Assembly: GCA_036172245.1 (NCBI GenBank)
Contig: JAYWIR010000006.1
Span: 4,340,001 to 4,404,000 of the forward strand
Length of the DNA: 64,000 bases
Direction: 5' to 3'
From: Raillietiella orientalis
Lineage: Eukaryota
This document shows, piece after piece, positions 9,177 to 64,000 of the stretch (position 1 is the first letter of the stretch; every line of letters starts with the position of its first letter). A model generated the notes under the pieces. The model saw only the letters and a list, made by a program, of their open reading frames with translations, was not told the origin of the DNA and ran no database searches. Position numbers and translations under genes: made by a program.

Positions 9177-9180
9177 CGCC

Positions 9181-15207: not shown

Positions 15208-15400
15208 AAGTGTGGGCTCAAGACGGAACGAAAGCAAGAACCGCCGTTTCGTCTCCGGGCACGTCTTCCCCTGCGTCCGAGCGGCGCACGCGGTCGCCCG
15301 TCGGCCGCACCATCGCAGCGACCCGGGCTCGCGCCTGCTCCGCTGTCGCCCTGCCGTGGGGACTCGCTCAGGCATCGCAGGAAGTCCTTTCCCTTTCAAG

Positions 15401-21900: not shown

Positions 21901-22195
21901 CTTCTTGAAATACTACAAGTCGAGCTGGAGGTTGAATGTAGCTCCCACGTTGAAGGAGTATCTGTCCAAGTTCAAGACCCTCGAAGATTTTCGCCATTAC
22001 GTTGTCGAAAAAGAGCACACCCGCAAGGGCGTAGATAAAGTACATGTGTGGATGCCTTCATTCCCCGCTGGGAGAACTGTTATGGGCCATCAGAGATTCC
22101 GTCATCTCTCTGAAGGTGAAGGCCTTCAGGCCGAGAAGCAGGAGGCGCCGACACGAAAACGCATCATTTCCGAGTGTGCCGACAAGAGTCGTTAG
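18927..22195 (+). CDS. LARP1: La-related protein 1, ~909 aa. Exons 18927-19296, 19337-19404, 19471-19606, 19649-20030, 20079-20437, 20478-20926, 20975-21359, 21411-21665, 21870-22195
   Basis: [10 protein letters not shown] and DWPSL N-terminal motifs; La motif [30 protein letters not shown]2-like [22 protein letters not shown]15 repeats [32 protein letters not shown] and [21 protein letters not shown] at ~22295 and ~22595. Confidence 0.95.
21720..21791 (+). ncRNA. SNORD38: Intronic C/D-box snoRNA, SNORD38 (U38)/snR61-like
   Basis: C box GTGATGA 21725-21731, D' CTGA 21754-21757, C'-like TGATG ~21767 and D CTGA 21783-21786. The guide CCAGTTCTGCT is antisense to the conserved LSU rRNA segment AGCAGAACUGG, and the D'+5 rule points to an A. 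TGTCCAGTTCTGCTACTGAA matches the U38 core as I recall it. It lies in the only enlarged (204 bp) coding-region intron of LARP1. Confidence 0.88.
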
Positions 22196-34600: not shown

Positions 34601-35546
34601 GTAAGAGCTGTGTTCCCGCATATCCCAAGGAAGAGGTCCCAAGCAGGAGGAGAGCTCCTCTGACTGCTGCAGGAACAGGCGTTGGGAGCAAGGCACTGGA
34701 TTCGAGACGTGCTTCCGGGAAGAAAGGGAAAAAGAATCGCTCTCTATTCTTTTCTGGAAAAGAGGGAGACGTACCTTCCTCCTCATTGACACCAGTAGAG
34801 AGAGAGTTCGTGAGAGCTGCTATAGCGACTGCAGAGTTCCCTTCCGCTATCCGGACTTCCTTTTTGGATTTCCCGTGGAGGAGGAGAGGCTGGTGGCGGC
34901 GGATTCTTCCAAAAACTCGTTTTTCCCCTCCCCTCCTGCCGATTCCGGTGCGACGGCACCGCCTACCCGATAGGAAGTCCCCGTGCGCGCTCACAGCGCG
35001 CCGGGCTTTCGAGACGCGGCTACCGCCCTCTCGCGCCCATCTCCTGAGCTACTTCGTCCTCCAAGGAAAATTTCCTCCTTCCTCCCCGGTCTCTTCCTCG
35101 GTGGGCAAAGAGGAAGAGGTGGGAACAAAGGCTTGTCCTAGGGAGCACTCCAGCGCACGTGACTGCCTGTCTCCTGCCGTCTCCCTCTCTCGCATCCCTG
35201 ACTCGGCTGCAATGCTAACTCCGCGTCTCCCGATAAAGGCTACCTGGGACGTGCAGAGAGGATGATCACCTCCTCATCCTCCTTACTCCCCTTCCCTATG
35301 CTCCTTCTTCTGGAGAGACGGCGGCTACGAGAAGCGGCCGCTGTGCGCGAGGATCCCGATAAAAAGAGGGAGGGGAAAAACTCAGCCGTTCCAGAAAAAG
35401 CGAGCGAGCGTGTCGTCGCTTGGGTGTGGGCGGGGCAGCGCCGCCCTTCCCAGCATTCCGGAACGACGACGACGCGGATCCCTTTCGGGCTCAGTTTCTT
35501 CCGGGAGGGACCGTCGATCGCTCGGTGCCGTGCTGCCGCCTCTACG

Positions 35547-38500
35547 ATGGATGCAACGGGATGCAGCTGCTGCTGCTACCTGTCGCCGTCGTCGTCGTCA
35601 GACCCCGCTGACCTCCCCACCGTGATGCCCTGCTCGAGATCACTGTTCCCGGAGACCACTGCCGCCAGCTGGACGCTCTTGCCCAACCCGGACCATCACC
35701 ACCACCACCACCACCACCATCACCACCACCACTCGCATCACTCGCACTGGCCGGGGTACGCTTACAACCCCTCTTCCTCCTCCTCCTCCGAGCTGGGACC
35801 CCCCCCGGACTGCGTTCCGGGCTTCTGTTCCCCCGGATCGCCCCCCGAGTCCTCGTCGGCCACACCGGACGCCATGTTCAGGCCCCGGGGAAAGCGCAGG
35901 AACACGGCCAACCGGAAGGAGAGGCGCCGTACCGAGAATCTCAACTCGGCTTACGCCCTCCTGCGCGAGCACATCCCTAACGTGCCCCCAGACACGAAGC
36001 TGTCCAAGATCAAGACGCTGCGGCTGGCCATCCACTACATTGGTCACTTGCTGACCGTCCTCCGGGAGAACGAGACCGTCCCGTTTCGCGCCGTGGACGT
36101 TCGGCACAACGGCACGGTTAGGAAGAAAGAGTTCATTAAGGTAAGGGGACTCGGGGCGTTCCTCCCGGCACCCCTCTGCTGGGTGGCGGCGGAGCCACTC
36201 GTCCCTTTAGTCTCTGTCTTCCATTCCCTCACCTGGTTCCACCGACCTCCGAACCGTCACTATACCATCTCACCAACGCCCCCGTTCTCGATACCCTTTT
36301 CACGTCCCTTCGCTGCCCCAGAAGGCGATAGTGCCTCTCTGGAATCTTCGAACTGAGTTCTGGGACCTCGTTCCTCCCCCTTGCTGGTCATGTGGCCGGT
36401 CATTTTGGGTGCGAAGTGAAACGTCCCGTCGCCTACGCTGTTCGCTCAGGGCGCCCACTGTCCCCATCTGCACAGCTCCACCGTTTGCGCCATCCTTTCC
36501 CCCTCTCTCCCAAGACCGAAGAGGCCACACCCTTTCTCGGCTAAAGGAGCCGAGAGAGGGTGCTGCTCCAGTAGCTTCCGCTGGTCCTCTGAGCTGCTCC
36601 TCCCCTCATACAAGAGTTTCCTGGTAGAGTGAGCGTCTTCAGAGGGACAGCTAAAGACCGATCCTCTGCTCCCGGCTGGGTCCGAGTTGCCCCGGGAAAA
36701 CTCCGCCTGCTGCCTGCTCCGCGTGCGGGTTGACATGGAGCACGCGCGCGCGCTCGTGCCACTCCGTCCAATCCATCAAACCAATGGAGGGAGACGTCGA
36801 AAGGCTTCTCCTTCCAAGCAGCGCGGGCTCCTACCGAGCGGACAAACGAGCCAAGGATTGCAGCGGGAGGCGGGTCAGGTTCGTAGACCTGGTGGGTGGT
36901 CCCGTCCAGAGGAACAAGCCCAGGTGCAAAGGCGCGCGTGCAGTGTTGTCGCTCGGAGGAGGAGCACCGTCCTGCAGCGGTTCATGCAGCGTCCATGGAG
37001 GAACTTCACAACCGGTCCGGCCCAGCAGCCGTGTGGCGGCTTCAGATGGGGTGACTCGAGATCGAGGAGCAGCGGCGTGGCTTTGCAAAGGTCCTCCCAG
37101 TGAAACGTAGCGGAAACACCTCCCGAGGAAGGACCAGAGCCTCTGCCGAGAAATCCTCAAGAGTTCCACGGTCAACTCCAAAAATCCAATAGTCCCGATT
37201 ATCCTTGAAGTATGGATCATTGGAATCGAGCTTCAGATGAAAGATGAAAGAGAAATTAGAAAGTTGCAAGATGGGTTCGCCAGTCTGAAAAAAAGTGCGT
37301 CACCTGGTTGGTATTCCACTGAGAGCTAGAAAAGATCAGTGAATGAAGAGAAAACAAGAAAGACGGATGGAAGAGGAGGTTGCCATTCCTTCGTGGGATC
37401 GCCCTTGAAACCTAAAGGGTTACATGGGAAGTATGAAATAAAGGCAGACGGAAAAGAGCAGGGAGGGAAGAGTCAGACTGATTGAAAATCGCCAACGGAT
37501 GATATTCAGGAGAAGAGTTTTCAGCTTAACGATGGCGATTTGTTACGCAGACCAAAGAGCATCCGTAGAACCGCGGGGGATCTCTGTCGCGTTTACGCAG
37601 GCCAGCGCAGGATGCAAGGCACGCACTCGGGAACGGGAGTCTTCAGCGCTGGGGGGCAGTTTCTGATGGTTTCTTGAACTGGATTCTCCAGATAGCCAGT
37701 CTCATTTCACACGTATAAGAATGCTCTTACCATTCATCGATGCATCCATCGCAAGCAGCTATAGGAAGAACTTTGTGAAGAATGACTTCATGAATTAGAA
37801 AGTTACTCATGAGAATTTCGACTGCTTAAGAGCAGCAACGTTTCGTGCTCCATGAGTACACCTTGTATTTCTGATCATTTGCACACACGGTGCAGTTATA
37901 AACGGGAGTTACTTGCAAATCTGTCAGCAGTGAGCCTACTTACCAGCTGTGGGAAGTCTTTCTGTTGTTTTCGGGGAACACATCTCACAAACGAATGCGT
38001 ACGTGTACGGTACAGTCGTTTCGAACGGGCTCACACTGCACGTGGTGACCAACCTTAATGGATGCAACACGCCAAATCCAAGCGGTGTCAACAATGCCCA
38101 TGAAGACGGTTGTGACGTAACTCAAGCGGTTTCTATTTTTGCACCACGGTATCGATCTGTCCCGAGGACGCCGATATCACCCAGGTGACGAACTGGTGGC
38201 TACGAAACGGGGCAGCGAGAGGGGCTCGGCAGGCCATTTGCGTTCGTGGCTACCGAAGCGCTCTGCAGGCTGCCATATGCTTTTGGTTCGGTGGTGCCTG
38301 CAAACTGAAATGGTTTGCGTTTACGGAACTTTGCCATGTTCGTATTCCCAGTAGGCAAACTGTTGCAAGATGGGGGGGAGGGGGAGAAAAAAAAAAAGCA
38401 GAACGATAAGAAAAGTAGCAGGAAAGGAAGAGAAACGTTCCGTTGTCGTTTTGAGATCGCGCTTCCCCACCTCCCTGACGAAGCAGCAAGGAGTGTTTTC

Positions 38501-47500: not shown

Positions 47501-50484
47501 TTCGGAAGGAAGACGTCCGGCATCCCTGCTCCCTCGCCCCTTCAAACAACCGGAAGCAGATCGTTTTCGCCGGCCGTCCCGGATGGGCACCGCATCTTCT
47601 CCGCGCCACTCTCCCCCCCCCCCCCTCTCCTTCCCCTCATTTTTTATCGAACGGGGGACCCGAGGCAGACCTCGCGCGCCTTCCTCCGACCTGCCCCTGC
47701 CCGGTTGTCCGCTCCAGTGAGGGCTCCGGGTTTGGATGAAGAGCAGGATCCGTGCTCCCGGGAGCCCTCGCCACAGGATGGCGGCAGCCGGTGCCGAGGT
47801 GTCTCCAGAGCGATCGATATAAAGACCTGTGCGTGGCCGCGTCCCCGTCCTGGAAGGGGGAAGGGGGGAAGCGAAGATGCCGGACGAGCTCCGTAGCTGA
47901 CCGGGCAACGCGTTCCTCAAGGGTCTACCTCTCCCCTTCCTCCCTCTTCGTTGGGGAAAAAAGTCCTATTTCGGAGCCCCGGGCTGCGAGCCGAGTCTGG
48001 ATCTCCCTCTCGCGCAAAGGGCGCTGCCATGGAAATGGGAACTTCCACGGGGGGCCCGCCGGCGAACCGCCCTACGGGAGGGGACCTCCTTCCGCAGCGC
48101 GCCAGAAACCGCGGACGACGGCGGTGCCGCCGGCTGCACGCGTTGCTGTGTGCGGCTTCCATGCAGGCGCCTCTCCGCCGCCCGTTTCCGAGGTTTCCCT
48201 TCCCGGCGGCAGCCCCTGATTGGTCGCCGGGGTGCGCCGCAGTCCGCCGCGGATTGGTCGACCCGAGCAGCACGGCGAACGACAGCGCGGAGATGCGGAC
48301 CGGAGCGTGCACGGCTGCCGCTCCCCAAATGGTAGCGGTCCAGATAGCTGGAAGCTGCTCATGTGGAGCCATTTCGAACGCCCTGGAAAGTTCACTTTTC
48401 TGAGAAGTTTCCCGGAGTCTGGAAAGCTTTAAAGGGGGAGGGCGAGCTCCTGTGCGCAATCGGTCACCGGTGGATGAGAGAGTGGACGGATCGGCGAGCA
48501 GCGCGTTGCCTGGTTACGCCCCGGGAAACGCACGCTCGCGCTGGAGAGGACATCTTTGCCAGTGCGAGGGGTTCAACCAGCTCCGTCCGCCCGCTTCCCG
48601 GCGGAACCCGCTGCGCGGCGTGGAAACGAGGGAGGAAGGGGGAAGACCGGGAGCGGCTGCCCGCTTTCCCCTCCCCTTGCGCGCGCGCCCGGCGCCGCTA
48701 CCGCTTCTATTTTTTCCCTTTCGCCCGCGTTTGTTTGTTTGTTCTTTCCCGGGGGGATTTTCCCGCCCTCGAGGTCGCTTGGTCCGGTGGGTGGGTCGCC
48801 GGAATACGCGCGGTTTCCAGGCTCCCGAAGGGGCCTGCGAACAGATGCGTCGGCAGCCTCATTTTTCACAAGGACTCGCTCGGGCGGGTCGCAGCCGACG
48901 ACCCCGGCGAGCCCGGAGGAGAGCGACGGGAAAGGAGGCGTCACAGAGCCGTCTTGCTGCCCCAGCGGCCTCCGCCTCGGCAGCGGTGGTTCAACAGCAG
49001 AAGCGGCCCGCGAAAGGGCCGCAAACACACTGTGCCTGCCCGCCCAGCGCTCCCGCGAAGGAAGGGCGGCAGCGCGCGGTCGGGAAACGGCGATCTTCGG
49101 GAGCTGCCGCCAGGGCGGCGCCGCATGCCGTAAGCGCGCGCGCGCCCACGCGCGGCGGCGACGGACTGCTTCGTGCGTGGCACTCGCGACCGACCGCCAT
49201 CCATGCCTCTGTCTTGAAAAGTGAAAGATCTGCATTTGAGAGTCCTTTTGGAGCGTTACGCATCAATGAATGAGCACGAGCGTGCGCATATTGCACGTAA
49301 AAAATAGGATTATCTTTGACTGCTCTTTAACTTTTGGCCTGCCGCTTCGACGGGAGCGGAAAAGCTGTGAAGGCAGGCGAAGGAAGTAGGGACGAAGGGC
49401 GAGGCGCCCCACCCTCACCAGAGTTCCGGGGTCGACATCGACATCCTCGCGAGGTGCCCACCCTCGTAGATGCGGCGCCGTCTCTCGCGTGGCCGGTCGA
49501 CGGAGAGGGCCGGGAAGCGGGATGGAGGCAACGCTGCGGGGAGCCAAGACGCGTCCCGGAGAGGTGCACCCAGGACCCCCTGTCCTTCCTCCTCCCCACG
49601 CAGGGAGGCCAAAGGTCGAGGAAGGGGGGGCGGCCCACGACCTAGCAGCTTCCGAGATGCTGCTGCGCGGATCCGACACCCTGAGGGAGTCCAGCGCGTT
49701 CGAGGTGCGCAAGGAACGGGCGAGAGGTTCGTTCTGGATGCTTCCGGCAGGCTCGGGATCCCGGAACGAGGGGCGCCGGTGCCCGTGGGCGCCTCCCGCT
49801 CGGGACGCCACGCCTGGGGGTCTTCGAGGGTCGGGCAGTCCCGACAGCAAGCGGGCGGCTCTCTGGGCGCGCCCGCGCGGGAGAGGGAGAAGATCCAGTC
49901 CCAGAGTCGGGCGCGCACGAGCAGCCCCTGGAGCATCGGCGCCCGCCGAGCTGCTTCCAGCATCGCCCCGGAATGCGCAGCCATCTTCGCCCGCACATGC
50001 GGGGGGGGAGGGGGCTAGACCATTGGAGGCTGCGGGAGCCGCTTCCATCCTCCCGGTGCCCGAGTGGCCGTCGGCGACGTTCCCGGGGACACGGCCGGCC
50101 TTCCGGGACGGTCGTTCGGCACGCGTGCCGCTGGGCCACCAGGGGTGGGGCCCCCATGGACGGGAGACGAAATTCCCCCCGCGCGCGCCCCTTCCCTTCT
50201 TGCCTCTCCGGTGCCCACGCGCTGCCCAGCGGAGAAACACGGAGCAGCAGCGGCGGCTTCCATCCTTCCTCTGGCGCCAACCGCGGCCTCCGCGCCGCTT
50301 CCATGTGCGTCGAGGGCCATGCGCGGGGGAGGACGTTGCCTTGAGAACGGCTGACTGGGAGGGGCCGCGCCCTCGCTCCCTAACCGTCTTCTTTCTCTTG
50401 CAGAGCGAAGAGTCCACCAGGAAGCACCGCGGTCGTACGGGGTGGCCCCAGCAGGTCTGGGAACTCGAACTGCAGCCCCAGTGA
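35547..50484 (+). CDS. Hand: Hand (heart- and neural crest derivatives-expressed) bHLH transcription factor, ~224 aa. Exons 35547-36140 and 50404-50484
   Basis: b[49 protein letters not shown] and N-terminal poly-His. Donor AAG|GTAAGG at 36141 and acceptor tttctcttgcag at 50403 join in phase 0 to [26 protein letters not shown], the Hand-specific C-terminal GRTGWPQxVWxLEL motif. Confidence 0.93.
39845..40650. repeat. Purine-pyrimidine-alternating (CA/TG/CG) low-complexity tract in the Hand intron
   Basis: Dense gtgcac, cacgtg, cacacg and gcgcgc words over ~800 bp. Confidence 0.6.
42675..42708. repeat. (GA)n microsatellite
   Basis: ggagagagagtgagtgagagagagagagagagaa. Confidence 0.8.
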
Positions 50485-50668
50485 AGCTCCCCCTGGCGGT
50501 ACGCCGCCCTCCCCCCCGCCCTCCTCCGCCAGCCCCCTTTCGTCTTCTTGTTCTCTTCCTTTTTTATTGCCGCTGTGCTCAGCCCAAGGTTGCCCGGTGA
50601 CACCGTGCGCCCCCGATCCTCCCGGTCGGCTAAGGCACGGTCAAGGCACGATCGGCGGTGGGCCGCCC

Positions 50669-53600
50669 TCAGTGCATGGAGACGTCCTGGTTGGATTCCT
50701 CGGCCTGCAGAAGAGAGAGAGAAAAAAGGAAGGAAATCAACGGAGGGATTCCGGGAGGGAGGGCGGCGCCACCCTCGCCGCCCGCCCCCAACCAAGAGCG
50801 TGGCGCCTTTGCTTACGTTGTTGGACGCACTTCCGGATTCGCTGGCGGACGAGTCGTCGCGCACGTGCGTGTTGAGGTGCCGCTTCATGTCGGAGCGCAC
50901 GCGGAAGGCCTTGCCGCACACGCGGCACGGGTAGGGGCGCTCGCCTGTGTGGATGCGGACGTGGTTGGTGAGGTAGCTGGCGGCCCGGAAGCTCTTGGCG
51001 CAGTGCGGGCAGCGGTAGTCGCGCTCGCCCGTGTGGATGCGGCGGTGCACTACCAGGCTGTACTTGCGAGCGAATGCCTTCCCGCAGAACTCGCACTGGA
51101 ACTGCCTCTCCCCGCTGTGGATGGACACCGTGTGGTACTTCAGATCAGCCCACTGGCGAAACCGCAGGCCGCAGTGAGGGCACGGGAAGGGTTTGTCCCC
51201 CGTGTGCCGGCGCAGGTGCACCTTCAGCGCCCCCGAGGCCAGGAACTTCTTGCCGCACACCTGCAAAAGGACGCAAGCAATAAACGAATGTTCCGGAAGC
51301 CCTGTGAAAGCGGCGTCTCCGAGCAGCCACCTACGAGCCGGAGACGAGGGATCGCAGCTTCCCTCATCCCTGGCTCGGCAGAGATCTCCCCCGCGCGCGC
51401 GCGTCGCGGGACAGACGCGGGTCCAGGAAGGCCCCGCAGCCCGGTTGGCTACGTGAACACCCCGCGCACCGATGTCTTTCCTTCCCGGGTGCTTCCGCTC
51501 CGCGCAGGCGCGCGCCACCTGGCACTTCCTCGAGAGAAGCCTCAACTGACGACCCCCGCGCCGACCTCCCGACGGTACCCACGGGCAGAGGCTTCCCCGA
51601 GCACGCGCGCACGCAAACCCGGGAACCAGGAAAACCACGCGGCCCGTCGGGAGAGGAAACCGGGATTTCTGCGGCTCCCTTCGCAGTCTGGAGCAGCGGG
51701 AAACGAAGAGCCGGCCGCAAAGGATCGAACAAACGGCTGCTGCGGCGGCGGCGATAGGAAGCCCGGAGACGGAAACCTCCACAGAGCAGTCGACCCTCCG
51801 GGTCGACTTCCGGTGCCACACCTCGTTTCCGTGCATCCGCATCACCTCAGTTCACAAGTAAACGCGCACGTGATGTCACACGCTTGCAGGAGAACACGGG
51901 TGGCAGAGGGAAACACTGGACGGAAGACACCCCTGGATGGATACACTTTCGTTTCTGCTTCTTCTCGAGATCCTGGATAAGCAAAGAGATTCCCGAAAAG
52001 ACTGCACCACCACTCCCTCCCTGTTTTCAGAGGGATTCACGGACACCTCTGTTTCTTTCGAATCCCTTGCTCGAGGGATTTGTCCGCCATCCGGTGAACC
52101 AGTGGCAGTCTCTCAGCACCCACTTGAAAGAGGTTTTGCAAGACCATCCGTCCGTCCGTCGAAGACTTCGCCTCAGTTTCCGGGCTATGCCCGCCGCGGA
52201 ATGAGAATGCGATGCTGAACACCTCGCTGCTCATACGGAGCGAAACAAGGCTTCGACTTAACCTGCTAGTTACCCTCCGCCCCCCTCCCTTCCCCAATTC
52301 CTTCCCTCTCTCCTCCTCCTCTTCCTCCTCGACAACCCAACAGTGCGCTCACAGATCCCACAAAGTGCCTCCTCGAGGTTCCACACGAGGTTCGGGCGGA
52401 GACGAACCCGCGAGCAGAAACGAAAGAGTTTCGTCTTTCGTTTCGTCGGTGCACGTGGAACGGCGTCGGACGTCACCGGCTACGACAGAAAATTCCCTCG
52501 TGTGGTGCCACTTCCGGGAGATCCGGGCAGGCAGACAGCGTCCATTTGCAAGGGACCAGTTCGCCGAACGGTCCGATCGGAAGGAACGCCGGCTGGAGAC
52601 TGGTCGCCGGCACTCAGGATTCGCTGCAAGAGGTCGCTCGCCCTCAGCACGGAGTGCCTTGAGGGCGACCCTGCACTAATGAGTCCACGCTCTTCCAGCA
52701 ACAAGAGTGGCAGCACCGGTCGCACTCCCCGCGCTTCGGAACCTCTCCAAGGAGGGAAGGAACTTTCTCGAGGGAACCACAAGAAAATTCGCCGCGTTTC
52801 CCTCGTTGGACGCCCCGGACCGGACTTCCCGATTTCCCTTCCGAGGAGAGCGGGACACTTGGTCCGCACGAGTGATGAATTCTGGATTGGGAGCGCGAGA
52901 ATCGGACAGCTCCCGGCAATCGAGCTCTTCTTTTGCAAATCCCACGGCGCCCCCAGCTGCTGGAGGAAGGCGAATCTCCCATCATTCGGGCGGGTCGCAG
53001 GAAGAAGAAACCAGTGCGTTCCTGGTTTCCCTGGTGACTCGGCACCCCGCATCTAGAGGTCAGCCGGTACCCGGAAAGCAGCCTAACGATCCACCTGACC
53101 TCGTTCGGACTTGAGAACCACCGCGGAAAGCAGCCGCGCGATTTCTTCCGATGCAGAGGTCGCTCCCGCGTGCGACTTGCGCTCGGGAGCGCCCGTTCCG
53201 CGGAATCCACTCCGCGCACCGTTCTTCCACCCACTGCTCGATCACCGCGCCGCCGCTCTTTGGATCCACCTGATGCCTTCACGCGCCCTCCCCAAGCCAT
53301 CTCTGGGACACGGACACGGCAGCACGGAGTGGGGAGAGGGAGGGTTCCAAGTCGGGCCACCTCGTTCTGGCCCCCACACGGGACTCCGGCAGCAGCTCTT
53401 GTCGCTGATGGACACGAAAACGGGAGATGCTTCCCTGCAGCTACCGACATTGCATTCATTTACTCCTTGCATTCACGACGATGACGCGCGGCCGATCCCT
53501 CCGCAGGAATGGAAACGGAAACACCCTACGGCCCACAGAATCCTACAGCCGCTGCTTCCACGCAAGGAGTCCTCCTCGTCTTTAAAGATACACGGGTGAC

Positions 53601-56600
53601 TCCTTCACTTGCTGTTGCTGCTGCATCGGGAGCAGCAAAACCATGCCAGCGCACACAGGCAGGTGGCCTTGCTGCTCCCGATGGTCGCCACCCTCCACTG
53701 AGAATCGCGGGAGAACTACGCCTCACACTTCCTGCTTCGCCGATTTCTACGTGTTCCGTTGTCCTCCAGTTTTGAAGCTGACGGGTCCACGCCCGCGAGT
53801 GGACCGTGAAAAGGAATGAAATCTCCTCTCGCTGACAACCATCCTTCGATGTAAAAATAATCCCTACGGTCACGGCGGACGAGCATGCAAGAAAGCAGCC
53901 GACTTACTGAAGGCATCAGTCGGTGTTTACCATGACAATACGTTGCCCTCATGACTGCTGGTAGCGTTTCCGATCAAACCCAACGCCGCCTACCAATCGT
54001 CAGCCCTTGTAATACATTGTATTACTATCTCGACGAGATGTGCGTTCTCATGTGCAGTTTTTGTTCCGTTTGGACACTGGTCTCCGTGTATAAGAAAGAA
54101 CCCCAGGTTCAGGTGCCAAGCCAAGCGCAGGCAACGTTTTCCGAAATACGGCACGTCCGAATGCCCCACAAAAAGTATAACTGGCAACGCAAGAAACGTT
54201 AAGGAAATTTCGCTTTCGGCGATATGAAAATAGTAGTGTCAAGTTATTAATAAAAAAAAAGAAGAAAAAAAAGAGGATCATTTGGGTCAAACTGGCGGCC
54301 TCTCTCATACCATTTTCGATCACACTTCAAAAAAAACAAGTCCTCAATCTGTAAAGGTGAATTTCACAATATATGCTACACATCCATGGCGACTGGACCT
54401 CTAAACAGCTATGGGAAAATTGTCTTACGTCTTGCACGGAATTCCCCCCTGCCAGGTCCTCGAGTGCCCAGTTGCTCGAGCAACCTGTTCACCTTTTGCT
54501 GGGCGTCCGACCCCATCACTTTTCAAATAACTTTGCAGGCATTTGGCTTGGCACTTGAACCTGGTGTTCCTCTCAAATATGGATATTGGTGCTTTTTCGC
54601 CTGCATCTCAGCAGGTATGCCTTTTCAGATCGATGATCAGCGCGCAAAGAAACATCTTCCAGAAAGCTGTAAAGACCTCCCAAGCAACAGATTACGGTAT
54701 GTTCATATCGAGATTCAATCTTGGAAGTTCAGCTGGGAGATTACAATCCCTAGGATCTCCTACACATGCTTTTCCTGCAGCACAGATGAGAGCTTCACAG
54801 TTTAAAAGACAAGTTAAAAACAAGCAACTTATGTCCAATACTCTAAACGACCAGTTTCGGTAAACATGCACACAGTCTCTCCAGCAGGCTGAGGATTTCT
54901 CTAAACAGCCGGAAGTTCCTTCCATCTCCAACAATCTCCCATTCACATGTTAAATGTAAAGTATGCCTCCTCCTTCGTGGTTCCATCAACCAGAATCAGC
55001 CCGAGTTCATCAGCCGTGTGAAACATAACTTAAAGTTGACCAGCATCGATCCACTATTGTCCACTTGATAACGACTGTCCAATGCAAAATGGCCAACCAA
55101 TTCAACTATTAGTGACCTATACACCGTCTGCTCGCCCTAATAATCTAAAATCGGAATCTTGCGTTTGCATTCACCTTCGAGAATACATCCAGCAGTTAAA
55201 GACTGTTGACGCTTTCATGCAAACTCAAAGTACGCTCCCATTAAATTCAGAGTCCTTTTTGCTCTGCTCAGCAGCAGTAGTTTGCTTTTGTTTGGGCTCA
55301 CTCTTAGGACCTTCTGTAGCAAATGTTCACAGCAGCTTTACCAAAAATGTGCACTTCTGTACGCTCATACTCTTCGGTGGTCAAAGCACCTGAACTTCTA
55401 TGCAGTCAGTCATTTTCTTCAAAAGAATTATTGTGCAATCTTGCATTGTTCTGATTTTTCCTTGCAGCCCCATTTAAGCGAATGTTTGTGCACGAACTCG
55501 AAATTCGGCACATGTTTTATACCTAAAGGAAATCACAACACACAAGCAACTGATTGCTCCATGAATAGATGTCCATGGAATACCTGTCTAACCAACCCTC
55601 ACCACTCCAAGATTCCTACACTGGAAGGCAAAGAAATGCAAGTGAATGACAGACTTGAGGAGTGAAGCTTTCATGTTCCACACCTTTCATTGCATCATTT
55701 CATTGCTAAGAAACTACTTACAACATCAACATTACAGACAGATCCTGGGTCTCACTTTGTATCCATTTTTCCTTTTGTAACTTTGCATAATCGATTATTT
55801 ATAGTTGCAAACCTTATAAGTACACCCATTTACATGGTAAATTTTAATTTTTCATATGTTTACAAACTACATGCACAATCTTAAATTAAGCACACTGTTA
55901 GTCATCGTCTTTCACCTCCATAGAAACAAAAATCTCCCATACCATGAAATCGATTACGGGATTTCACACTACACACATTAGGAATAACATGGAATTCACT
56001 TTACTTTTGGCTATGAGAATCATTCATAAATAATGCACGAAACAAAGGCTTTACTATACTAACAGGAAGTACTATACCAACAAAACACACACATAGTGTA
56101 AAGACTCATTATGTCATGGATTATTCCATGCTTACATCACTATGTGCAGAAAGAGCTCTTAACAAAACATGTATTCACAATTTACACCAATATGCAATTC
56201 AAGCTGTTCTCAAAGAAACTTAAATAAATAAATTGATTTTGTTATTAATTTGAAAGCATTTGCAAACTTCTGAACCAAGGACAATTCACTGAAATTTTGT
56301 GAAAACGTTGTAGTTTTGTGAATACATACTTTGAACTTTGAAGTTTCATTCTCAAATTTTCACATAATTAGCCACACATGAAAGTATCAATTAAATACGC
56401 CTTCGCAAATCCGAATAAAAACGTCTTCTAATTTAGGACTCTTTGAAGAACTACAAAGTGCTTGCTGAAAACCTTATAAGTAAAGTTCTCTTACCTCACA
56501 TTCATGTGGACGATGATTAATATGAGTTCGTAAATGATACATAAGAGAGTTTCGATATGTGAACACTTTGGAGCAAATTTTGCAAGCATGAATTTTCTTA

Positions 56601-58276
56601 GTTCCTAAAAGCATATTGTGGGAACTTTTAATGTGCTTTAACAAATCCTCTTTTTCTGCAAAAGTTTTACTGCATTCCATACAGGCATGAATTTCATCAG
56701 ATTTGTGAGAGAGCTCTTTAGAACTATCGTGGAAAAGATCATTTTCTGTTTCAAAAACATTCGACTCTAGTTTCAAGTTACAAGCAGGTTCATTATTTGC
56801 ATTATTCCCCACACCTGCATTGCTCAAGGAATCATAGGTATGTGGAGAAACTTTACTTATAGTTTGAATAATTGGTGTTTCTGTTGGAGAAACCTCTTCA
56901 TCTAGAACTCGTGGTTTTTTCCTAAATTTAATAGGTTTGTGAGTGTCTGCAATATCCAAGTTATCTCCTTCAGAACTATTGGGTTTCTTATTCTCCAAAA
57001 CTTGCTCAGCTTCATAATGGAGTTTAAGATGGCCAAAAAACTTAATCTGTTCATCAAAAGAAGAATCACATAAATCACAAATGAACCTTTTCGCATCAGA
57101 ATCTTCTTTAGAATTGTCAGAGCAGCTTACAGTCGCATCTTCATTTTTGCTGTCTGAATTGGAGGGCAAAGCCACTTTCCATTTAGGAGGATTTTTTATT
57201 TTTCTTTGTATACGTTTTTTGTGAGGCAAGCTTCCATTCCAATCTTCCTCACAGTCTGGATTTAAATCTTCACTGCCTGCTCCTATATAATCGGGCATAC
57301 AAAATTCTGGAAGAGATTTCTCCTGAAAAAGTTTTTCTGAAAAATCTTGGGTTGATGTCAGCAGTGAACTATCTGCATTAAATGACTGTCCTTTAAACGA
57401 AGTATCAAGATTGTCTTTGATGTTGAAATTCAGTGAATCAACTAGAGAGCCTTCACACAAATACGTATTAATAACACTGGACAATTGGGATTCTGTCTGG
57501 GAATCAAGCAGTTTTCGTTTTTTCGGAACATTAGGTCGGAACAGGGTTTCATGGGAGAGCAGATCACACTTGGCTGCAAACTGCTGGGAATCATTAGATG
57601 AAAAGTATTCTTGCTTATAAGTACGGAAATCTTGTTGCTCCAGAGTATCATTATTAGTACAAGTAACTTGTGCTGAGTCAGAAGGTAAGAAATTCTCTGA
57701 TGATGTGTGCAGCTGATTGCTAAGATCCAGTCCAGTAAACTGGAATGGCATACGAGATGCAATCAGTGCATCAGATACTTCTCGATCCAAATCTTGCAAA
57801 GAGTCTACAGTCAGTTGTTGGGCAGGCACAAAAATGACTTCAGATCCATCAATATCCAACACATAATTCACTTGTTTATGTGGCATCCTCAGATAACAAG
57901 AACGTGGTTTGACACCATACACATCCAGTAAGCCACCATCACAGGGATTGTACACAAAAGAATTGCGCCCTTTACTCCCATAATGCTCTGAACTGATATC
58001 ATAATCCATATCCAATGTTGTTTTCCCAGAGAGTACACTCTGCATATAACTGGCTTCAACTTTACCATCACTGAGGGCCAAAGAATGGAACTCAACATCA
58101 TCAGCTATGTCAGAAGGGAAGAAGTCCTGGGGAGCAGGTAGAGCAAGCATGGAGGAATGTGTCAGGAGAAGAGTCTGATCCACATCTATATGAGATCCAT
58201 AAGTTAAATCATCAGCCAATGAATCCATGGATTCTGCTGTATGCAACAAGATGGCATTATCTGCCAGGCAGGCCAT
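50669..58276 (-). CDS. C2H2 zinc-finger protein, ~753 aa, 8 fingers. Exons 58276-56495, 51260-50817, 50704-50669
   Basis: Exon 1 has three fingers plus HRPHECE| (donor GTAAGA), joining |VCGKKF...HLRRHTGDKPF in phase 0 to rebuild a CxxC. TGE[KR]P-type linkers follow. The last intron is GTAAGC...ctgcag, and there is a minus-strand AATAAA at 50568-50563. Confidence 0.9.
54098..54569. repeat. 27-bp inverted repeat pair (54098-54124 / 54543-54569)
   Basis: gaaccccaggttcaggtgccaagccaa versus the reverse complement of the second arm, gaacaccaggttcaagtgccaagccaa: 25/27 identical. Confidence 0.75.
54600..55500 (-). mobile_element. Highly degenerate Bel/Pao-type LTR-retrotransposon pol (integrase-region) remnant in the ZnF intron
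   Basis: Collinear broken fragments GALTTEEYERTEVHIF, KIPIL..SLIVE, FWL...C...CWRWK, FTETG.L.Y, CLFLTCL and LGGLY. These resemble Pao motifs (LTxEE..AE, PIILP, FWI..C..CRR, PFxxTGxDY, CLFTCL, GGFYE). Many stops and frameshifts. Confidence 0.45.
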
Positions 58277-58383
58277 GCCCTAAGGCAGTGTTTGTGGGTG
58301 GTGCCAGTCTTCTTTGAAGACCCAGCACTAAATGATACAGAAAAAGAATGCTCAGATATTATTAGCTCAAGCCCAACCCATCA

Positions 58384-58436
58384 AACTCGGGAGAGGAGGT
58401 TTGTCAGGCCCCACTGCATCACTGCAGCTCCCTGCT
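58384..58436 (-). ncRNA. Intercistronic structured RNA element B (xrRNA subclass-1b-like three-way junction plus pseudoknot)
   Basis: AGCAGGGA-GCUGCA gUGA UGCAGU-GGGG-CCUGACAAA-CCUC-CUCUCCCG-AGUU; homologous to element A. Confidence 0.6.
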
Positions 58437-58493
58437 CTAAAGACATGCCAGAAGAAATACTGTACAAACTGGTACTATTGGAGAGAAGATACA

Positions 58494-58887
58494 TTACAAA
58501 GGCCATTTCCACTGGTTAGCAGGGGCATCACTCAACAGTGGTTCCCAAGGTTTCCATTTCAGCATACTCCTAGCCAGGATGAGCTCATTCTCTGCTTGCA
58601 AGATAAGCTCTTCAATCTAAAATGCTACTAACAAAAGCAAACAAAATGCCACAGCCCACCTGCCCACCCCCAATGCGATGCTCAATGTGAGCCAAGTTAT
58701 TAGCCTCTTCATTGACAATAGCCTTTCGATGTGAAACCAATTGCTCAGTATGCTGTCTATATGCAGCATCTGCTGGCATCTGCTGTAGTACTCGAAGGAT
58801 TTTATTGTAAACAACATTAAGGGAGGAAACGGGACTATGGGCTACTGCCAGACCTGCCAGTCGCGTTGTTGTTTTTACTGCTACCAT
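58494..58887 (-). CDS. NDUFA5: NADH dehydrogenase 1 alpha subcomplex subunit 5, 116 aa. Exons 58887-58660, 58616-58494
   Basis: [11 protein letters not shown]...[25 protein letters not shown]...[17 protein letters not shown]...WKPWEPL...NQWKWP; 43-bp GT-AG intron. Confidence 0.96.
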
Positions 58888-58926
58888 CTACGGCTGTAAG
58901 TGAGAAAAAGGTTGCTAAGTTCAGCA

Positions 58927-59019
58927 GACTTGGGATAGGGAGGTGCGTCACACCCCACTGGTCAGGGCTGAGCCAGCATGTTCTTCCCTGGCAATAGTTA
59001 TCCCTGACCAGTCCCTGCC
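58927..59019 (-). ncRNA. Intercistronic structured RNA element A (xrRNA subclass-1b-like three-way junction plus pseudoknot)
   Basis: GGCAGGG-ACUGGUCAGGG...CCCUGACCAGU (perfect 11-bp stem)-GGGG-UGUGACGCA-CCUC-CCUAUCCCA-AGUC. Confidence 0.62.
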
Positions 59020-59051
59020 TTGCAGGGAGAAGAGCTCAAGTATCAAACCCT

Positions 59052-60776
59052 TCAAGTTTTTCTTTCCAACTGATAGGCTTTGGTTAGCTGTTGAGCAACC
59101 TCCATGTATTCCCGATGGAACTCATGCAGCTTCTGCAGGGCAAACTGCAGTTCGGCCAGCTTGCTTGTTTCCTGCTGCATATGTGCTCGATTCTTTTCCA
59201 GATTCTGCACTACTTTCTGTAAGACTTGTGTTAAGCCATTCACTAAGTTGTTCCAATTTTTCCTCTCACCATTGCACTCCCTGTGAAAACTGAGGTCATT
59301 TGTATTTAAATGTTATTACTTACTTTTCAAACACTTCAAGAAAAGAGTCCACAAGTGTAAGCTCTCTCTCCTGGCAGCTCTTGACATCACACAAGGTGTT
59401 GTACTGGGAATAGGCTCTTTTGACATAGCGGGTTGTGGCTGCACTCTCTAAAGCAAGCTCATGAAAGCGAAGTCGGTACTGAGTCAGCTCAGCACGACTG
59501 GGGATGGCATCTCGCTGAAGCAACGCGCTTTGCAACTGTTGGGTGAGTGCAGTGTGGAGGTGTTGCTTCTGTTTCAAATCCTGCAAGATTCCCAAGAAGG
59601 CAGAGCCTGTGAAGGCAGTTTGTATTAAGCCTTGCAACTCTTGATGTAGTTGCTGCTCTTCCTGCTTCTGGGTTTGTGAAAGTGCTCTTTCCTGTTTGCA
59701 CAAATTCTCTTGTTCTTGAAGAAGTGCTTGCATTTTCTTTTGATGGGTTTCATCCATCTGACAAATATAGCTCTGCAACTCTTTCATCAGCTTCTGAATG
59801 TTGGCTGTGGCTTTCTGCTGTTCAACTTTCAATTGTTCATATTCTTGTTTAGAAGAAGCTAACTTATTCTGAGCCTCTTTAACTGCTTGATTGCATACTT
59901 CCAGTTGACCTGCCACTGTCCACAGCATAGGAGCATGGCAACTCTAATGGGAATTGAAACACATCCATCACTCAAGGGGGCAAACTGATTACCACAGTGT
60001 CATCTGTTTCCTCCAGAGCATCTGGATGAATGAATGTCTCTACAATATCTTTCTTCAGCACACTAGCAGGTGATTTACATACAAGGAATTCTTCTCCTGA
60101 TGAAGGTTGCACATACAACGAATGCAAGCATTCTCCAAATTCCATCAGGATAGAAGCCACCCAATCCTCCTCTTTCATATTCTGTAATCTTTGAGTGCGA
60201 CGGCACTGTCTTATGTGTAATGTTGGTTCCTTAGAAGCAGTACATGGAACAGAAAAGAATGGCACGTAATCTTTCAGGTGCAACTGCGCACAATGTTTCA
60301 TGAATGCTTCCATCTCTGCATGGCGATCTGTGCTTTTCCTCAAGAGCCACTGAAGAATAAAAACTAAACTTAGAACTTGATGGAAGAGAAGAGGAAAAAA
60401 AAGAGGCACACCTGAACAACAGGGATAATATGAACACAATCCGATCCCTGGATCTGGTGAGGCTCCAAAGAATATGGACATGCAAGTTTTCGTAGCTGCA
60501 GAACCAGTTTCTCCAGGAAAATACTACAGCAAATGGACATTGGATTATTTCAGCTACTCACATTCTTGATCCCAATGAACACTGCTCCTCATATACAAGG
60601 GCAAAATCGAGATCAGCAGCACACAGACTTAAGCACCAACATAATCCACCAGCTACCCTCTCAAACAGGCATAATCCTGGTATGCGAGCACGAAAATAAC
60701 CACCAGCCAAAAGCAGCTGGAGTAATTCCTGCTCATGTTTATCAGCTGGTTCTGCATCTATCGTGCTGGACGTCAT
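59052..60776 (-). CDS. CCDC93: Coiled-coil domain-containing protein 93 (CCC/Commander complex), ~510 aa. Exons 60776-60562, 60523-60412, 60349-59993, 59943-59324, 59280-59052
   Basis: [48 protein letters not shown] and [15 protein letters not shown], with a coiled-coil C-terminal half. Introns are 38-62 bp. Confidence 0.93.
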
Positions 60777-60851
60777 GGCTACCTACGAAACACACACTGA
60801 AAGAAAATGAAGTCACAAAATGGTCACATGCATCCTGTATTCCCACACAAA

Positions 60852-62320
60852 CTATTTCTTAGATGACCGAAAACCCGTAAAACCCATAACAGATGCCATA
60901 TCAGGATCAATTGCTTCATCCCCCAAATCCCCCTGAGCTTTTCGTTTTTTTTCCTTCTTCCGTTCCCTTCTGTACTCCCGAAGTTTTTCTTCCTAATGTG
61001 AAATTACACAAAATGATGCAGTTTGAGAGAATATTGTCAATAGACCTCCTCCCTGATTTCCTGCATCCTCTGCTCTAAACTGTATTCCTGCCTTCGTTCT
61101 TCCTTCTTTCGCTTGTTTGATTCCAGTCTGGTACGTACTTGATCCAGAGAAGAACGTTCTATACGCATAGACATTCCCAAATTTCTCTGATCTGTGAATG
61201 AGAACAGTAAAGAGAACTGTCACCATGTCACCTTACGTTTCTTCCCATTGATATGGTCCAGAAAATTAATTGAATCTTTAACCACACAATCACAGACATT
61301 GCAATAATACCTAGAGATTTTCAGATTGATAATTGTCTGGTGAAAAGACTCACCCTCCAGTTTGAGAGGCAGGTGTAGTCTTTGTTATGATAAGAGATTT
61401 TCCTAACTTTGAATTTAAATCAACCTTGTAATCCCTTGGTTTGAGAAGCTCTCTTTGACCAATATCTGCAAGTGGATCCTTAATTGCAGCAATTTCTGCA
61501 CGAATTCTATCATATGCAATTCTTTGGTATTCATTACGATCCCACTTCCTTCGATGATCTTCTGGTCTCTAAAAACACATTTAATTCTCCTAGAACATCA
61601 TTTCTGCAGTAATCAGTATTAAAGTTGAAATAAATGTTTATCTGAAAATGAGAGTCAACTTTTATTGGCTTCATTTATAATCTAACAATCTAAGATATGA
61701 GTTTCACCCATGCTTCATGACAGAAAACACAATTTATTATGACTCTATTGACGCTTCAATTAGTTAACGGTTGTAGCTCGCTATTTACTTGCATTGAATG
61801 CTATAGTCCAATGGTTCCGTTAATCATCCTCATTTCTCATTATCAAGTATACTGTTTATTACCAAAACCTAGTTTTCTAACACTTTGCAATCAAACTTTG
61901 CATTAATATTCTGCAATTTGTATTTTGTAAATTTTAACAACTAAAACCGATATTAATACGATTTTCATAAACGGTGTATCTGTACAACTTTCAGAACGTT
62001 ATTGTACCGACAATAACGCTACTACTTGATGCAGAAAAAAAAAAAAACAAGCACCTCACAACTTAAAAGTACTACACAACGAGTTTGCCAATTTTCAAAA
62101 TTACCAATTAAGCTAATGTAGCGAAGTATTCCCTACCGGAGACTTTCTTAGTCTACACAATAAGCAAACACCCTAGAGTTTTCAAGTTTCGGAGAAGAAA
62201 ACAAGAACTATCAGACAGTGTCCATAATTATAAAAATTTTAAAGCAGAAATACTTATATGAAATTATAAACTGAAACATGTCAGTGTGAAAGGAGGGCAA
62301 CTTACATCCAAATCCATCAT
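60852..62320 (-). CDS. ZMAT2: Zinc finger matrin-type 2 (Snu23 spliceosomal B-complex protein), ~196 aa. Exons 62320-62306?, 61568-61354, 61310-61237, 61191-61046, 60992-60852
   Basis: Not in the ORF track. [58 protein letters not shown] and [10 protein letters not shown]. The first micro-exon (MMDLD|GTAAGT) is tentative. Confidence 0.94.
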
Positions 62321-64000
62321 TATGTAGCAAACGAATCGTTACTTGGAACGACACTTTAGGAAGTAAACATCATATGTTCATTATCTATTTAGGATTACCA
62401 ACATCATTTTCACTTAGAAGTTTTGCCCTTGATTTCACAGCAGAAGAAGATGGCGATATTTTTTGAAAAATGGAATTAAATTACAAATGCAAGGGGAAAA
62501 TATTTTGTATATTTAACGACATTTTAGATAGAATTACTTCACAGAACATTATGATTGTTCATTCTATTATATGAGCAAGCAGTACGTTACACGTGTGCTT
62601 GCATACTTCTGCCATGCATTCTTATAAATGAATACTTGAGTCGATGAATCGTATACGTTGGCGATATTCTTAATATCTATGACAACTGCTGACAATTCAA
62701 GGTCTCACAGGGGCTATCATAATGAAATGATAGGTCAGAGAGCGGATAAAACGAAATTAGTTTCAATATTAAATTGTATATTCAACTTCAATGAAAGTTA
62801 CTTAGTAATCAGTATAACGAAGTGTACAAGAAAAGAATCATATCGATCTCTCAAAATTTAACTTCTTTTTCAAATATAAATATTAATTTGAAGACGCAAC
62901 TCAAAGATAGTAAGAATGATAAATTAATTACGCTTCACAAGGATGAAGACGAAATGAAATTTTTGCGTGTGAATCTTCTGCAAATTTTATAATTAAAAAC
63001 AGAATAATTGTAATTGGTTAATTGTATAAGATGAATAGAATTTCTCATGAAAATATTCTTCAAATGATAAATATTTCTGCCATACATTGTAGTTAATACG
63101 GGAAAATCTTGGAGCAAGATGTTTTTTTGTTGGCCTAAGGAAGGAATCATCTCTAAAGCGTAGTAAACAAATGTAAAAAAACAGAAATAAAGTGACAACC
63201 TGTTTAGTAAGATTTCATTCTGCTTCGAAAGTGCAATACATGAAATTCTTGCAGAATCGACAGTTTTGAGTATTTATAATGAAATCACCATATTGCGGCA
63301 ATATATAATTATTCTCATCCTAAGAGATGTATGTTATGAGAAAGCATTTGCTATCTATGAAGAACAAAATGTTCAAGGGAAAGGGAAAGGGAACATCAAG
63401 GGAAAGAAAAAAAAGGTAGGATTGGATTCCTGCTTTCTGTATGTAGAATCCAATTAATGATCATTTATTCTGCTTCTTCAATGCAGATATGAGTAAAGAA
63501 ACATATTTACAAAACTAATCTATATGATTCTTTTTCTTGAACTCCATTGCACTTGTACATGTATTTTCAACAAAGAAATAAAAATTCCCTTCCGTTTTGA
63601 ATTTATTTCAATTTCATAATTCTTTCGTCATAATATCTTCTCATGCGTATTTCCTGAAATGTGAGGTTTCTCGTAACGGGATGCTTTTGAAATCCATTAA
63701 GAATATTCCCCTTACTTCGACAATTCACAAAAAGAAAAGAACACAAACTTTGTGTTTCGATTGGAAAAGGTGTGACCAAACAAATCTTATTTTCTTGTGT
63801 AATCACCGTCCTTTGCACCCGTCCATCGCTCCACTGACTTTTGCGTGCCTGCTGAGACAAGTTTCCGTCCTGTGCATTTGAAGGATTTCGTTGCTTCGCC
63901 ATTCAGAATTACATCTGCTTCAGGTTATCCATAAGTGGTTCGAACAGAAAGTTGCATGATGGCGAATCGGAGTTGTGTGCGGGTTGTTGCAATGTCTCAA

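Follow-up and report, generated by a model that had tools for sequence, protein, structure and literature searches.

Acceptor-like sites precede the downstream start codons of a tight head-to-tail cluster of three housekeeping genes and a zinc-finger gene

Within a 64-kb window (the whole stretch of DNA that was analysed), exon models placed four genes head to tail on the minus strand in the order ZMAT2, CCDC93, NDUFA5 and a C2H2 zinc-finger gene. The cluster comprises three housekeeping genes and one zinc-finger gene, all co-oriented, with the four start codons inside 4 kb. Stop-to-ATG gaps in these models are 75, 164 and 217 nt, which are very short intercistronic distances. An earlier reading of the locus, made from the letters of the sequence only, had described four unrelated genes on one strand with these same gaps; the exon models reproduced them exactly, and exon-by-exon matches to Pfam families or homologues back the gene names it had given. 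The features of the cluster are as follows.

60852..62320, minus strand: ZMAT2, the first gene; ATG at 62320, stop codon 60854-60852; modelled exons 62320-62306, 61568-61354, 61310-61237, 61191-61046 and 60992-60852 (with stop)
60777..60851, minus strand: spacer 1, 75 nt; AATACA at 60841, donor-like GTGGG at 60846, GTGTG at 60848, CAGTG at 60799; three acceptor-like sites with the AG ending at 60797 (12/15 pyrimidines), at 60783 (TAG, 6 nt from the ATG) and at 60779
59052..60776, minus strand: CCDC93; ATG at 60776, stop codon 59054-59052; modelled exons 60776-60562, 60523-60412, 60349-59993, 59943-59324 and 59280-59052
58888..59051, minus strand: spacer 2, 164 nt; perfect 11-bp hairpin (59012-59002/58967-58957), then, at 58960-58922, a motif shared with spacer 3; GTGGG (donor-like) at 58958; two acceptor-like sites with the AG ending at 58894 (13/15 pyrimidines) and at 58888 (TAG adjoining the ATG)
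58494..58887, minus strand: NDUFA5; ATG at 58887, stop codon 58496-58494; exons 58887-58660 and 58616-58494
58501..58951, minus strand: RNA contig over NDUFA5 (run X1, record 1), with a length of 408 nt and a depth of 7.1; 58951-58658 joined to 58614-58501
58277..58493, minus strand: spacer 3, 217 nt; at 58416-58379 the motif shared with spacer 2, GTGGG (donor-like) at 58414, AATAAT at 58363; two acceptor-like sites, one with its AG ending at 58328, 51 nt from the ATG (12/15 pyrimidines), the other a TAG ending at 58280, 3 nt from the ATG
56495..58276, minus strand: exon 1 of the zinc-finger gene; ATG at 58276, 594 codons, GC3 0.31, donor GTAAGA at 56494
50817..51260, minus strand: exon 2 of the zinc-finger gene; GC3 0.93

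The introns of ZMAT2 measure 737, 43, 45 and 53 nt and are GT-AG throughout; its exon 1 (15 nt, MMDLD) is a prediction. Exon 3 matched zf-met (4.3e-07), and exon 2 gave 169 matches at E<=1e-5 to 'zinc finger matrin-type protein 2' proteins, the closest of which, at no more than 69% identity, came from ticks, a centipede, gastropods and Daphnia; searched singly, exons 2 and 4 had no Pfam match. CCDC93, with introns of 38, 62, 49 and 43 nt, matched CCDC93_N (2.2e-13) and CCDC93_CC (3.1e-19) exon by exon. NDUFA5 has a 43-nt intron with the donor GTGGGC and matched the Pfam family ETC_C1_NDUFA5 (6.4e-22) as well as complex I B13 subunits in the PDB (4e-13); a homologue search with its exon 1 for candidate relatives returned none. 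Exon 1 of the zinc-finger gene matched zf-C2H2 (7.9e-09) and, in an Atlas search, generic C2H2 clusters only. Its exon 2 extends the finger array in frame (...HECE/VCGKKF...) beyond a 5234-nt intron (56494-51261), with a 3' end putatively placed by a GTAAGC. The eight verified short introns are 38-62 nt long with a GC content of 0.28-0.43; across the nine verified introns, the consensus GTRAG fits just 5 donors, and TAG is the preferred acceptor (6/9).

The flanks of the cluster are gene-poor. Only 3 of 149 ORFs of at least 150 aa at positions 1-54000 had a Pfam match, and none of five ORFs in the 1.68 kb upstream of ZMAT2 had a match. With these few Pfam-positive ORFs, no match in the 1.68 kb and a 5.2-kb intron in the zinc-finger gene, the surroundings of the cluster are not compact. 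The gene-poor DNA beside it includes a Hand-like bHLH gene.

The sequence-only reading had stated that the gaps hold neither AATAAA nor a GTRAG donor. Both points were borne out: ATTAAA is missing as well, no GT[AG]AG occurs in any gap, and a scan of the three gaps for 15 poly(A) hexamer variants found only AATACA at 60841 and AATAAT at 58363, with none in spacer 2. Each spacer does contain one donor-like GTGGG, the pentamer with which the verified NDUFA5 donor begins, and a strong acceptor follows 50-87 nt further downstream; this gives substance to the caveat in that reading that tiny cis introns might exist. Spacers 2 and 3 have in common a 39-nt motif, identical at 29/39 positions (CAGTGGGG..TGAC..ACCTCC..TCCC.AGT.TG.TG), whose copy in spacer 2 lies close to the start of the NDUFA5 RNA contig. 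Metagenome scans gave 0 matches for the degenerate motif and, for relatives of CCDC93 exon 4, 178 pattern matches with 0 confirmed. Folding of whole spacers was no better than that of shuffled sequences (z -1.5, +1.7 and +1.7); the hairpin of spacer 2 alone stood out (z -2.2), and a small hairpin within the 39-nt motif is not kept in spacer 3.

The acceptors proposed at 60783, 58894 and 58328 (each coordinate being the G of the AG) were all found. With a strong acceptor defined as YAG with at least 12 pyrimidines in the preceding 15 nt, the minus strand of 54000-64000 contains 11 such sites. Each of the three spacers, which total 456 nt, has one of them, with the first exon nucleotides at 60796, 58893 and 58327. 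Six of the 11 have at least 8 T, namely the three spacer sites, two sites in verified introns and one in the zinc-finger gene intron. On the same strand of these 10 kb, a TAG within 9 nt upstream was found for 19/235 ATGs (8.1%), as was a strong acceptor within 60 nt upstream (19/235, 8.1%). Both features are found at each of the three downstream start codons, and neither is found at that of ZMAT2. By these counts, for tests chosen post hoc after the sequence had been seen, acceptor-like sites before the downstream ATGs exceed chance; as splice sites they are candidates. A weight matrix built from the nine verified acceptors was overfitted (leave-one-out scores of -5 to 8), and simple pyrimidine counts were used instead.

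The only public RNA consisted of four metatranscriptome contigs of run X1, from a relative 91-99.6% identical; the share of words for this run was 0.06, and ZMAT2 exon 1, spacers 1 and 3 and the zinc-finger gene had no cover. ZMAT2 intron 2, CCDC93 introns 1, 2 and 4 and the NDUFA5 intron are spliced out in these contigs. On the 5' side of the ATG, the NDUFA5 contig stays colinear with the genome over 64 nt, running through the acceptors at 58894 and 58888 without an unaligned end, which indicates that a sizeable share of the RNA is unspliced there (k-mers of abundance at least 2, mean depth 7.1). Its first base, 58951, lies 8 nt past the A of CAGTG (58959), and the 64-nt stretch before the ATG differs from the relative at 1 position, against 12/228 in the coding exon. 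Because its other end stops inside the coding sequence at 58501, the ends of this contig are unreliable as transcript ends. The common leader and the read-through RNA predicted by the sequence-only reading did not appear: the four contigs, a data type that drops rare variants and short tips, have no loose ends and cover one downstream 5' end, and none bridges two genes, the furthest reaching 64 nt into spacer 2. Neither was an SL RNA gene found in the 64-kb window, where no Rfam family passed gathering thresholds; three weak matches in 58200-61000 (E 0.16-0.39, far below gathering) were treated as chance.

Our preferred reading, held tentatively and at less than even confidence, is that the cluster is resolved by SL-type trans-splicing of one polycistronic RNA. 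ZMAT2 would carry the main promoter, RNA polymerase would continue through the short spacers, each upstream message would be cut and polyadenylated within the spacer, and the downstream message would be capped by the leader, its 5' end arising when a genuine 3' splice site 0-51 nt before the ATG is used. We think that a trans-acting SL RNA is the most likely splicing partner of the downstream acceptors, and we infer co-transcription, use of these acceptors and existence of a leader. A variant inseparable from this scheme here would have extra start sites within the spacers, as in the 'hybrid' operons of nematodes, with the spacer RNA removed as an outron. The structural part of the operon signature claimed earlier stood, as it is real, non-random and fits; the leader, an SL RNA gene in the window and bridging RNA were not found. 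Gap sizes within the range of published operons, the tight packing amid surroundings that are not compact, the excess of strong acceptor-like sites in the spacers and of TAGs just before the downstream ATGs, the preference for TAG in the verified introns and the lack of AATAAA in the gaps count for trans-splicing, and against it counts the absence of the canonical poly(A) signal expected in an intercistronic region, for which only the variants AATACA and AATAAT are present. Two further results speak against it, namely the colinearity of the NDUFA5 contig across both acceptors and the GTGGG in each spacer; because contigs drop rare variants, neither refutes it.

Where a 5' splice site lies upstream, cis-splicing is expected to be favoured over trans-splicing. 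Each spacer might hold a short cis intron of 50, 65 or 87 nt that runs from GTGGG (60846, 58958 and 58414) to the strong acceptor, a reading that we regard as rather unlikely, if a serious one. Two kinds of upstream exon are conceivable, namely a short non-coding first exon begun in the spacer or the preceding gene, and, where transcripts are conjoined or read through, the last exon of the preceding gene. The donor for CCDC93 would lie only 5 nt past the ZMAT2 stop codon, so that its leader would have to overlap ZMAT2. GTGGG occurs eight times on this strand in the 10 kb, three times in the spacers (one each) and a fourth time as the verified NDUFA5 donor at 58659, and the absence of GTRAG does not exclude donors because just 5/9 verified donors fit it. 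The predicted lengths lie near the 38-62 nt of the verified short introns, and the branch-point-like sequences CTGAA, CTAAT and GTGAC are found 17-37 nt before the acceptors. However, GTGGG was picked post hoc as one of four donor words tried, the candidate introns have a GC content of 0.40, 0.51 and 0.45 against 0.28-0.43 in the verified ones, and the 29/39 identity following the 'donors' of spacers 2 and 3 is not explained by a 5' splice site alone. Moreover, the NDUFA5 contig, a single one of low depth from a relative, keeps 58951-58894, nearly the whole predicted spacer intron, while the next intron is spliced, and it does not reach the supposed upstream exon. A further cis arrangement, in which the phase-0 exon 1 of ZMAT2 (15 nt) would be alternatively spliced to all four gene bodies, would be consistent with TAG acceptors 6, 0 and 3 nt from the ATGs, all in frame (chance 1 in 27); it is a speculative possibility that we do not favour.

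Four ordinary, tightly packed genes that are transcribed separately, each spacer providing a TATA-less core promoter with an initiator-like CAGTG, seem unlikely to us. The 39-nt motif would then represent an initiator together with elements of the 5' UTR or of a downstream promoter type, and unspliced 5' UTRs or poly(A) downstream elements would account for the pyrimidine tracts and AGs; the GU-rich and U-rich tracts could serve the poly(A) site of the upstream gene. The resemblance to the fly Inr/DPE is imperfect, as the spacing is off by 1-2 nt. On this strand CAGTG occurs 17 times in 10 kb, four times in the spacers and at least once in each, and no ATG intervenes between 58959 and the NDUFA5 start. 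The NDUFA5 contig, of a kind that cannot show a cap or true start, begins just after this CAGTG and includes the whole stretch to the ATG with no loose end, and the single change in these 64 nt likewise agrees with a 5' UTR begun there. Yet the unreliability of contig ends applies here too, a zinc-finger gene leader begun at 58415 would contain an upstream ATG at 58381, and the 75-nt gap could scarcely accommodate a promoter along with the 3' UTR of one gene and the 5' UTR of the next. Separate promoters also leave unexplained why each of the three downstream ATGs, unlike the first, has a TAG within 9 nt as well as a top-ranked acceptor.

Compared with known systems, the locus resembles SL2-type operons of C. 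elegans in its co-oriented unrelated genes, intercistronic distances of about 100 nt and acceptors just before the downstream ORF. It differs from them in that its spacers lack AAUAAA and contain the donor-like GTGGG, no leader or SL RNA gene was seen in the X1 contigs or the window, and its proteins are not nematode-like. The succession of a hairpin and a motif some 50-90 nt upstream of the acceptor, seen in two spacers, recalls the nematode Ur element. It is improbable, in our estimation, that hairpin and 39-nt motif form an element devoted to processing between cistrons in a bilaterian lineage with undescribed operons; such an element would mark the cut site in the polycistronic RNA and bring the leader snRNP to an acceptor lying 65-87 nt further on, and would be an independently arisen functional analogue of the Ur element. 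Leaderless di- or polycistronic and conjoined genes of insects usually comprise two ORFs, and a strong acceptor per ORF is not defining for them; like these, the present locus has unrelated ORFs head to tail on one strand and possibly one spliced transcript.

Operon gaps measure about 100 bp in C. elegans, less than 100 bp in Ciona and up to 60 bp in Oikopleura (PMC7986045). The very short gaps and the acceptor adjoining an ATG are shared with these tunicate operons (PMC7986045), whereas two of the three gaps, at 164 and 217 nt, are longer than the cut-offs of 60-100 nt applied to them. In further contrast to tunicates, the proteins here are slow-evolving and 5-kb introns are present. For chaetognaths, operons are defined by gaps below 250 bp and consist of housekeeping genes, with developmental genes excluded (PMC12460157), in the non-compact genomes of Paraspadella gotoi and Spadella cephaloptera (PMC12460157, PMC2481426). 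Similarly, a tight housekeeping cluster lies here beside gene-poor DNA with a Hand-like bHLH gene. Unlike in chaetognath operons, no leader was seen in the X1 contigs, and whereas only 3 nt separate poly(A) site and acceptor in S. cephaloptera, the RNA contig here extends at least 57 nt upstream of its acceptor.

SL trans-splicing and operons are patchily distributed across animal phyla, and their origins are debated. If confirmed, an operon at this locus would add a data point from a slow-evolving bilaterian with large introns, gene-poor flanks and strong GC domains, would indicate that operons need not accompany genome compaction, and would make the shared spacer motif a candidate signal for processing between cistrons. 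Should separate promoters or cis-spliced leaders prove correct, the locus would be an ordinary one, and a warning that acceptor-like sites before ATGs are insufficient for calling an operon.

Elsewhere in the window, ARAGORN predicted 0 tRNAs and no tandem repeats were found. A LARP1 DM15 exon is 60-71% identical to its counterparts in vertebrates, arthropods and molluscs alike.

Exon models of the four genes, which lie head to tail on the minus strand, were drawn by eye, and their frames and splice sites were then checked by script:

62320-60852, minus strand: ZMAT2, five exons
60776-59052, minus strand: CCDC93, five exons
58887-58494, minus strand: NDUFA5, two exons
start at 58276, minus strand: C2H2 zinc-finger gene

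These models bore out the stop-to-ATG gaps of 75, 164 and 217 nt proposed by the sequence-only reading (spacers 1, 2 and 3, from ZMAT2/CCDC93 to NDUFA5/zinc-finger gene). All nine introns of the modelled cluster genes were GT-AG; ZMAT2 intron 1 measures 737 nt and the other eight 38-62 nt. The proposed gene names were likewise supported by domain matches of single exons (CCDC93_N, CCDC93_CC, ETC_C1_NDUFA5 and zf-C2H2), by the similarity of NDUFA5 exon 1 to animal complex I B13 subunits in a PDB search and, for ZMAT2, by a zf-met finger in exon 3 together with matches of exon 2 to proteins named ZMAT2 (identity at most 69%); the encoded proteins are animal, and the protein collections searched include none from a near relative of the organism. 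Exon 1 of the zinc-finger gene ends at 56495 (...HECE, then a GTAAGA donor), and exon 2 continues from 51260 (ttttgcag, then GTGTGC) after an intron of 5234 nt, with the finger array in frame.

The cluster is located at the window end in an island richer in AT, with 33-45% GC; the rest of the window has 55-68% GC. Pfam searches of the 149 stop-to-stop ORFs of at least 150 aa in positions 1-54000 gave matches (E<=1e-4) for only three, namely the fingers of the zinc-finger gene, an HLH domain and a fragment of a lipase; nothing matched in the five ORFs of the 1.68-kb stretch preceding ZMAT2. Because recognisable genes are this sparse in the rest of the window (about one per 10-15 kb), the density of the cluster, with four start codons in 4 kb, is conspicuous; the genome around it is not compact.

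Acceptor sites before each downstream ATG had been claimed as well, and these exceeded chance in counts of both YAG sites and ATG-proximal TAGs. Among the 289 YAG sites on the minus strand of 54000-64000, 11 had at least 12 pyrimidines in the preceding 15 nt, and three of these strong sites fell inside the 456 nt of the spacers, one per spacer (first exon nucleotide 60796, 58893 and 58327). Six strong sites also carried at least 8 T: the three in the spacers, two in verified introns and one in the long zinc-finger intron. In addition, a TAG, the commonest acceptor of the verified introns (6/9), lies 6, 0 and 3 nt upstream of the ATGs of CCDC93, NDUFA5 and the zinc-finger gene, respectively. 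Across 235 minus-strand ATG triplets, a nearby TAG was found in 8.1% and a strong acceptor within 60 nt in 8.1%; both features occurred at all three downstream starts and neither at the ZMAT2 start. Since these counts were settled on once the sequence had been inspected, their nominal odds of about 5e-4 each err on the optimistic side; despite this post hoc choice, we provisionally accept the spacer sites as real 3' splice sites. The TAG acceptors (60782, 58887 and 58279) would all be in frame with a phase-0 upstream exon or a codon-ending leader (chance 1 in 27), and ZMAT2 exon 1 (62306-62320), which is 15 nt long, ends in phase 0.

As proposed, GTRAG donors were absent from all three spacers, and the accompanying caveat that donors are degenerate in this genome proved apt, with GTRAG fitting just five of the nine verified donors. 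GTGGG, which opens the verified NDUFA5 donor, occurs eight times on the minus strand in 10 kb, including once in each spacer (60846, 58958 and 58414), 50, 65 and 87 nt upstream of the strong acceptor. These distances are similar to short introns, although two candidate spacer introns exceed, with GC contents of 0.51 and 0.45, the range of 0.28-0.43 in verified short introns. Spacers 2 and 3 also have a 39-nt motif in common (29/39 identical in blocks, CAGTGGGG..TGAC..ACCTCC..TCCC.AGT.TG.TG):

58960-58922, minus strand: motif copy in spacer 2
58416-58379, minus strand: motif copy in spacer 3

The first copy directly follows an 11-bp perfect hairpin (59012-59002/58967-58957; z -2.2, equalled in 3 of 200 shuffles) and the second is preceded by a hairpin of 6 bp whose loop is GUGA; no match to the motif was found in Rfam or metagenome contigs. 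CAGTG, with 17 minus-strand copies in 10 kb, is present four times within the spacers. On these features, the motif start could be an initiator, a 5' splice site, a cleavage site with a GU-rich downstream element, or an intercistronic element. Known points of reference for such spacers are the Ur element of nematodes, hybrid operons and the core-promoter motifs of flies.

RNA came from one public metatranscriptome stored as contigs (run X1; 0.06 share of sampled words), in which four contigs from a relative matched the cluster at 91-99.6% identity. They lacked NDUFA5 intron 1, CCDC93 introns 1, 2 and 4, and ZMAT2 intron 2 as modelled, with substitutions allowed at two junctions; none of the four bridged two genes or had an unaligned end. 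The NDUFA5 contig (record 1; 408 nt, depth 7.1), from which the NDUFA5 intron is absent, begins 8 nt past the A of the spacer 2 CAGTG and is colinear with the genome up to 58951, 64 nt before the NDUFA5 ATG and 57 nt before the proposed trans-splice site. As it runs unbroken past 58894 and 58888, the relative makes processed RNA left unspliced at these sites, which speaks, though not decisively, against efficient trans- or cis-splicing at the NDUFA5 acceptors. Contigs lose rare variants and assemblers often clip short leader tips; moreover, the other end of this contig falls inside coding sequence, and contig ends are therefore not transcript ends. It differs from the window at one of the 64 upstream bases and at 12 positions in the 228-nt coding exon (six amino-acid changes), a non-significant hint of constraint on the spacer. 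Identity across 58501-61543 was uneven (99.6% in ZMAT2 exons 2-3, about 95% in NDUFA5 and about 91.5% in CCDC93 exons 1-3), and the source could be either a sister species or a population of very high polymorphism.

Taken together, we tentatively favour a polycistronic RNA resolved by spliced-leader (SL) trans-splicing at the spacer acceptors, with or without internal starts. This reading best accounts for the tight packing in a roomy genome, for acceptors at all downstream ORFs and their absence at the first, and for the missing AATAAA, but it is weakened by the read-through NDUFA5 contig, by the donor-like GTGGG sites and by the failure to find a leader in the contigs or an SL RNA gene in the window. 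As a rule, an upstream donor makes an outron behave as an intron. Short cis introns in the spacers, which would supply cis-spliced leaders and explain the pairing of GTGGG with acceptors, are somewhat less likely; this reading is weakened by the NDUFA5 contig, which retains the predicted intron, and by the conserved 39 nt. That same contig and the shared motif would be expected if the genes were separate unspliced units with their own promoters; this is less likely still, as the acceptors would be left without explanation and 75 nt would have to accommodate the 3' UTR of one gene together with the promoter and 5' UTR of the next. What probability remains goes to other readings. A hybrid is possible, in which transcription starts within spacers and the outrons are afterwards trans-spliced. 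For the SL-resolved operon of the sequence-only reading, the structural signature is thus confirmed and the interpretation plausible but unproven, with the NDUFA5 contig as one contrary RNA item.

If it is an SL operon, the cluster would work as the operons of nematodes, tunicates, rotifers and chaetognaths do, by a mechanism already known, and would be a further example. Its layout agrees with published operons; membership among SL operons, whose defining features are a leader, an SL RNA gene and a polycistronic precursor, is putative. In roomy genomic setting and housekeeping content, it would be closest to the operons of chaetognaths (PMC12460157, PMC2481426).

The zinc-finger gene (50817-58276, minus strand) spans a sharp GC boundary, with GC3 rising from 0.31 in exon 1 to 0.93 in exon 2; around 53.5-54 kb a regional GC of about 0.36-0.45 gives way sharply to 0.59-0.67. 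A domain change of isochore-like kind therefore falls within a single gene, in an animal with 43-nt introns. The long intron of the zinc-finger gene contains an inverted repeat (54098-54146/54521-54569; 49-nt arms, 80% complementary, 374 nt apart), possibly a small element of foldback or MITE-like type. Many frames are open in the about 45 kb at 55-68% GC (1-16000 and 22500-53500), and long ORFs there mostly result from the high GC content itself; in an 862-aa ORF at 49266-51851, genuine coding sequence is confined to the surroundings of its four zinc fingers. An ORF in GC-rich DNA at 4070-4885 (plus strand) with an Abhydro_lipase N-terminal region (5.3e-15) probably represents a single exon of a lipase gene. 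A second AT-richer island harbours a LARP1 gene of several exons (about 18888-22195, plus strand; DM15/HEAT exon 21368-21757, 1.5e-40). A lone developmental gene within GC-rich DNA (35202-36353, plus strand) encodes a bHLH domain (HLH, 1.7e-18) preceded by a histidine run; its nearest PDB matches are Twist, TAL1 and ASCL1 (Twist/TAL class), and by eye we take its basic-helix region to be Hand-like.
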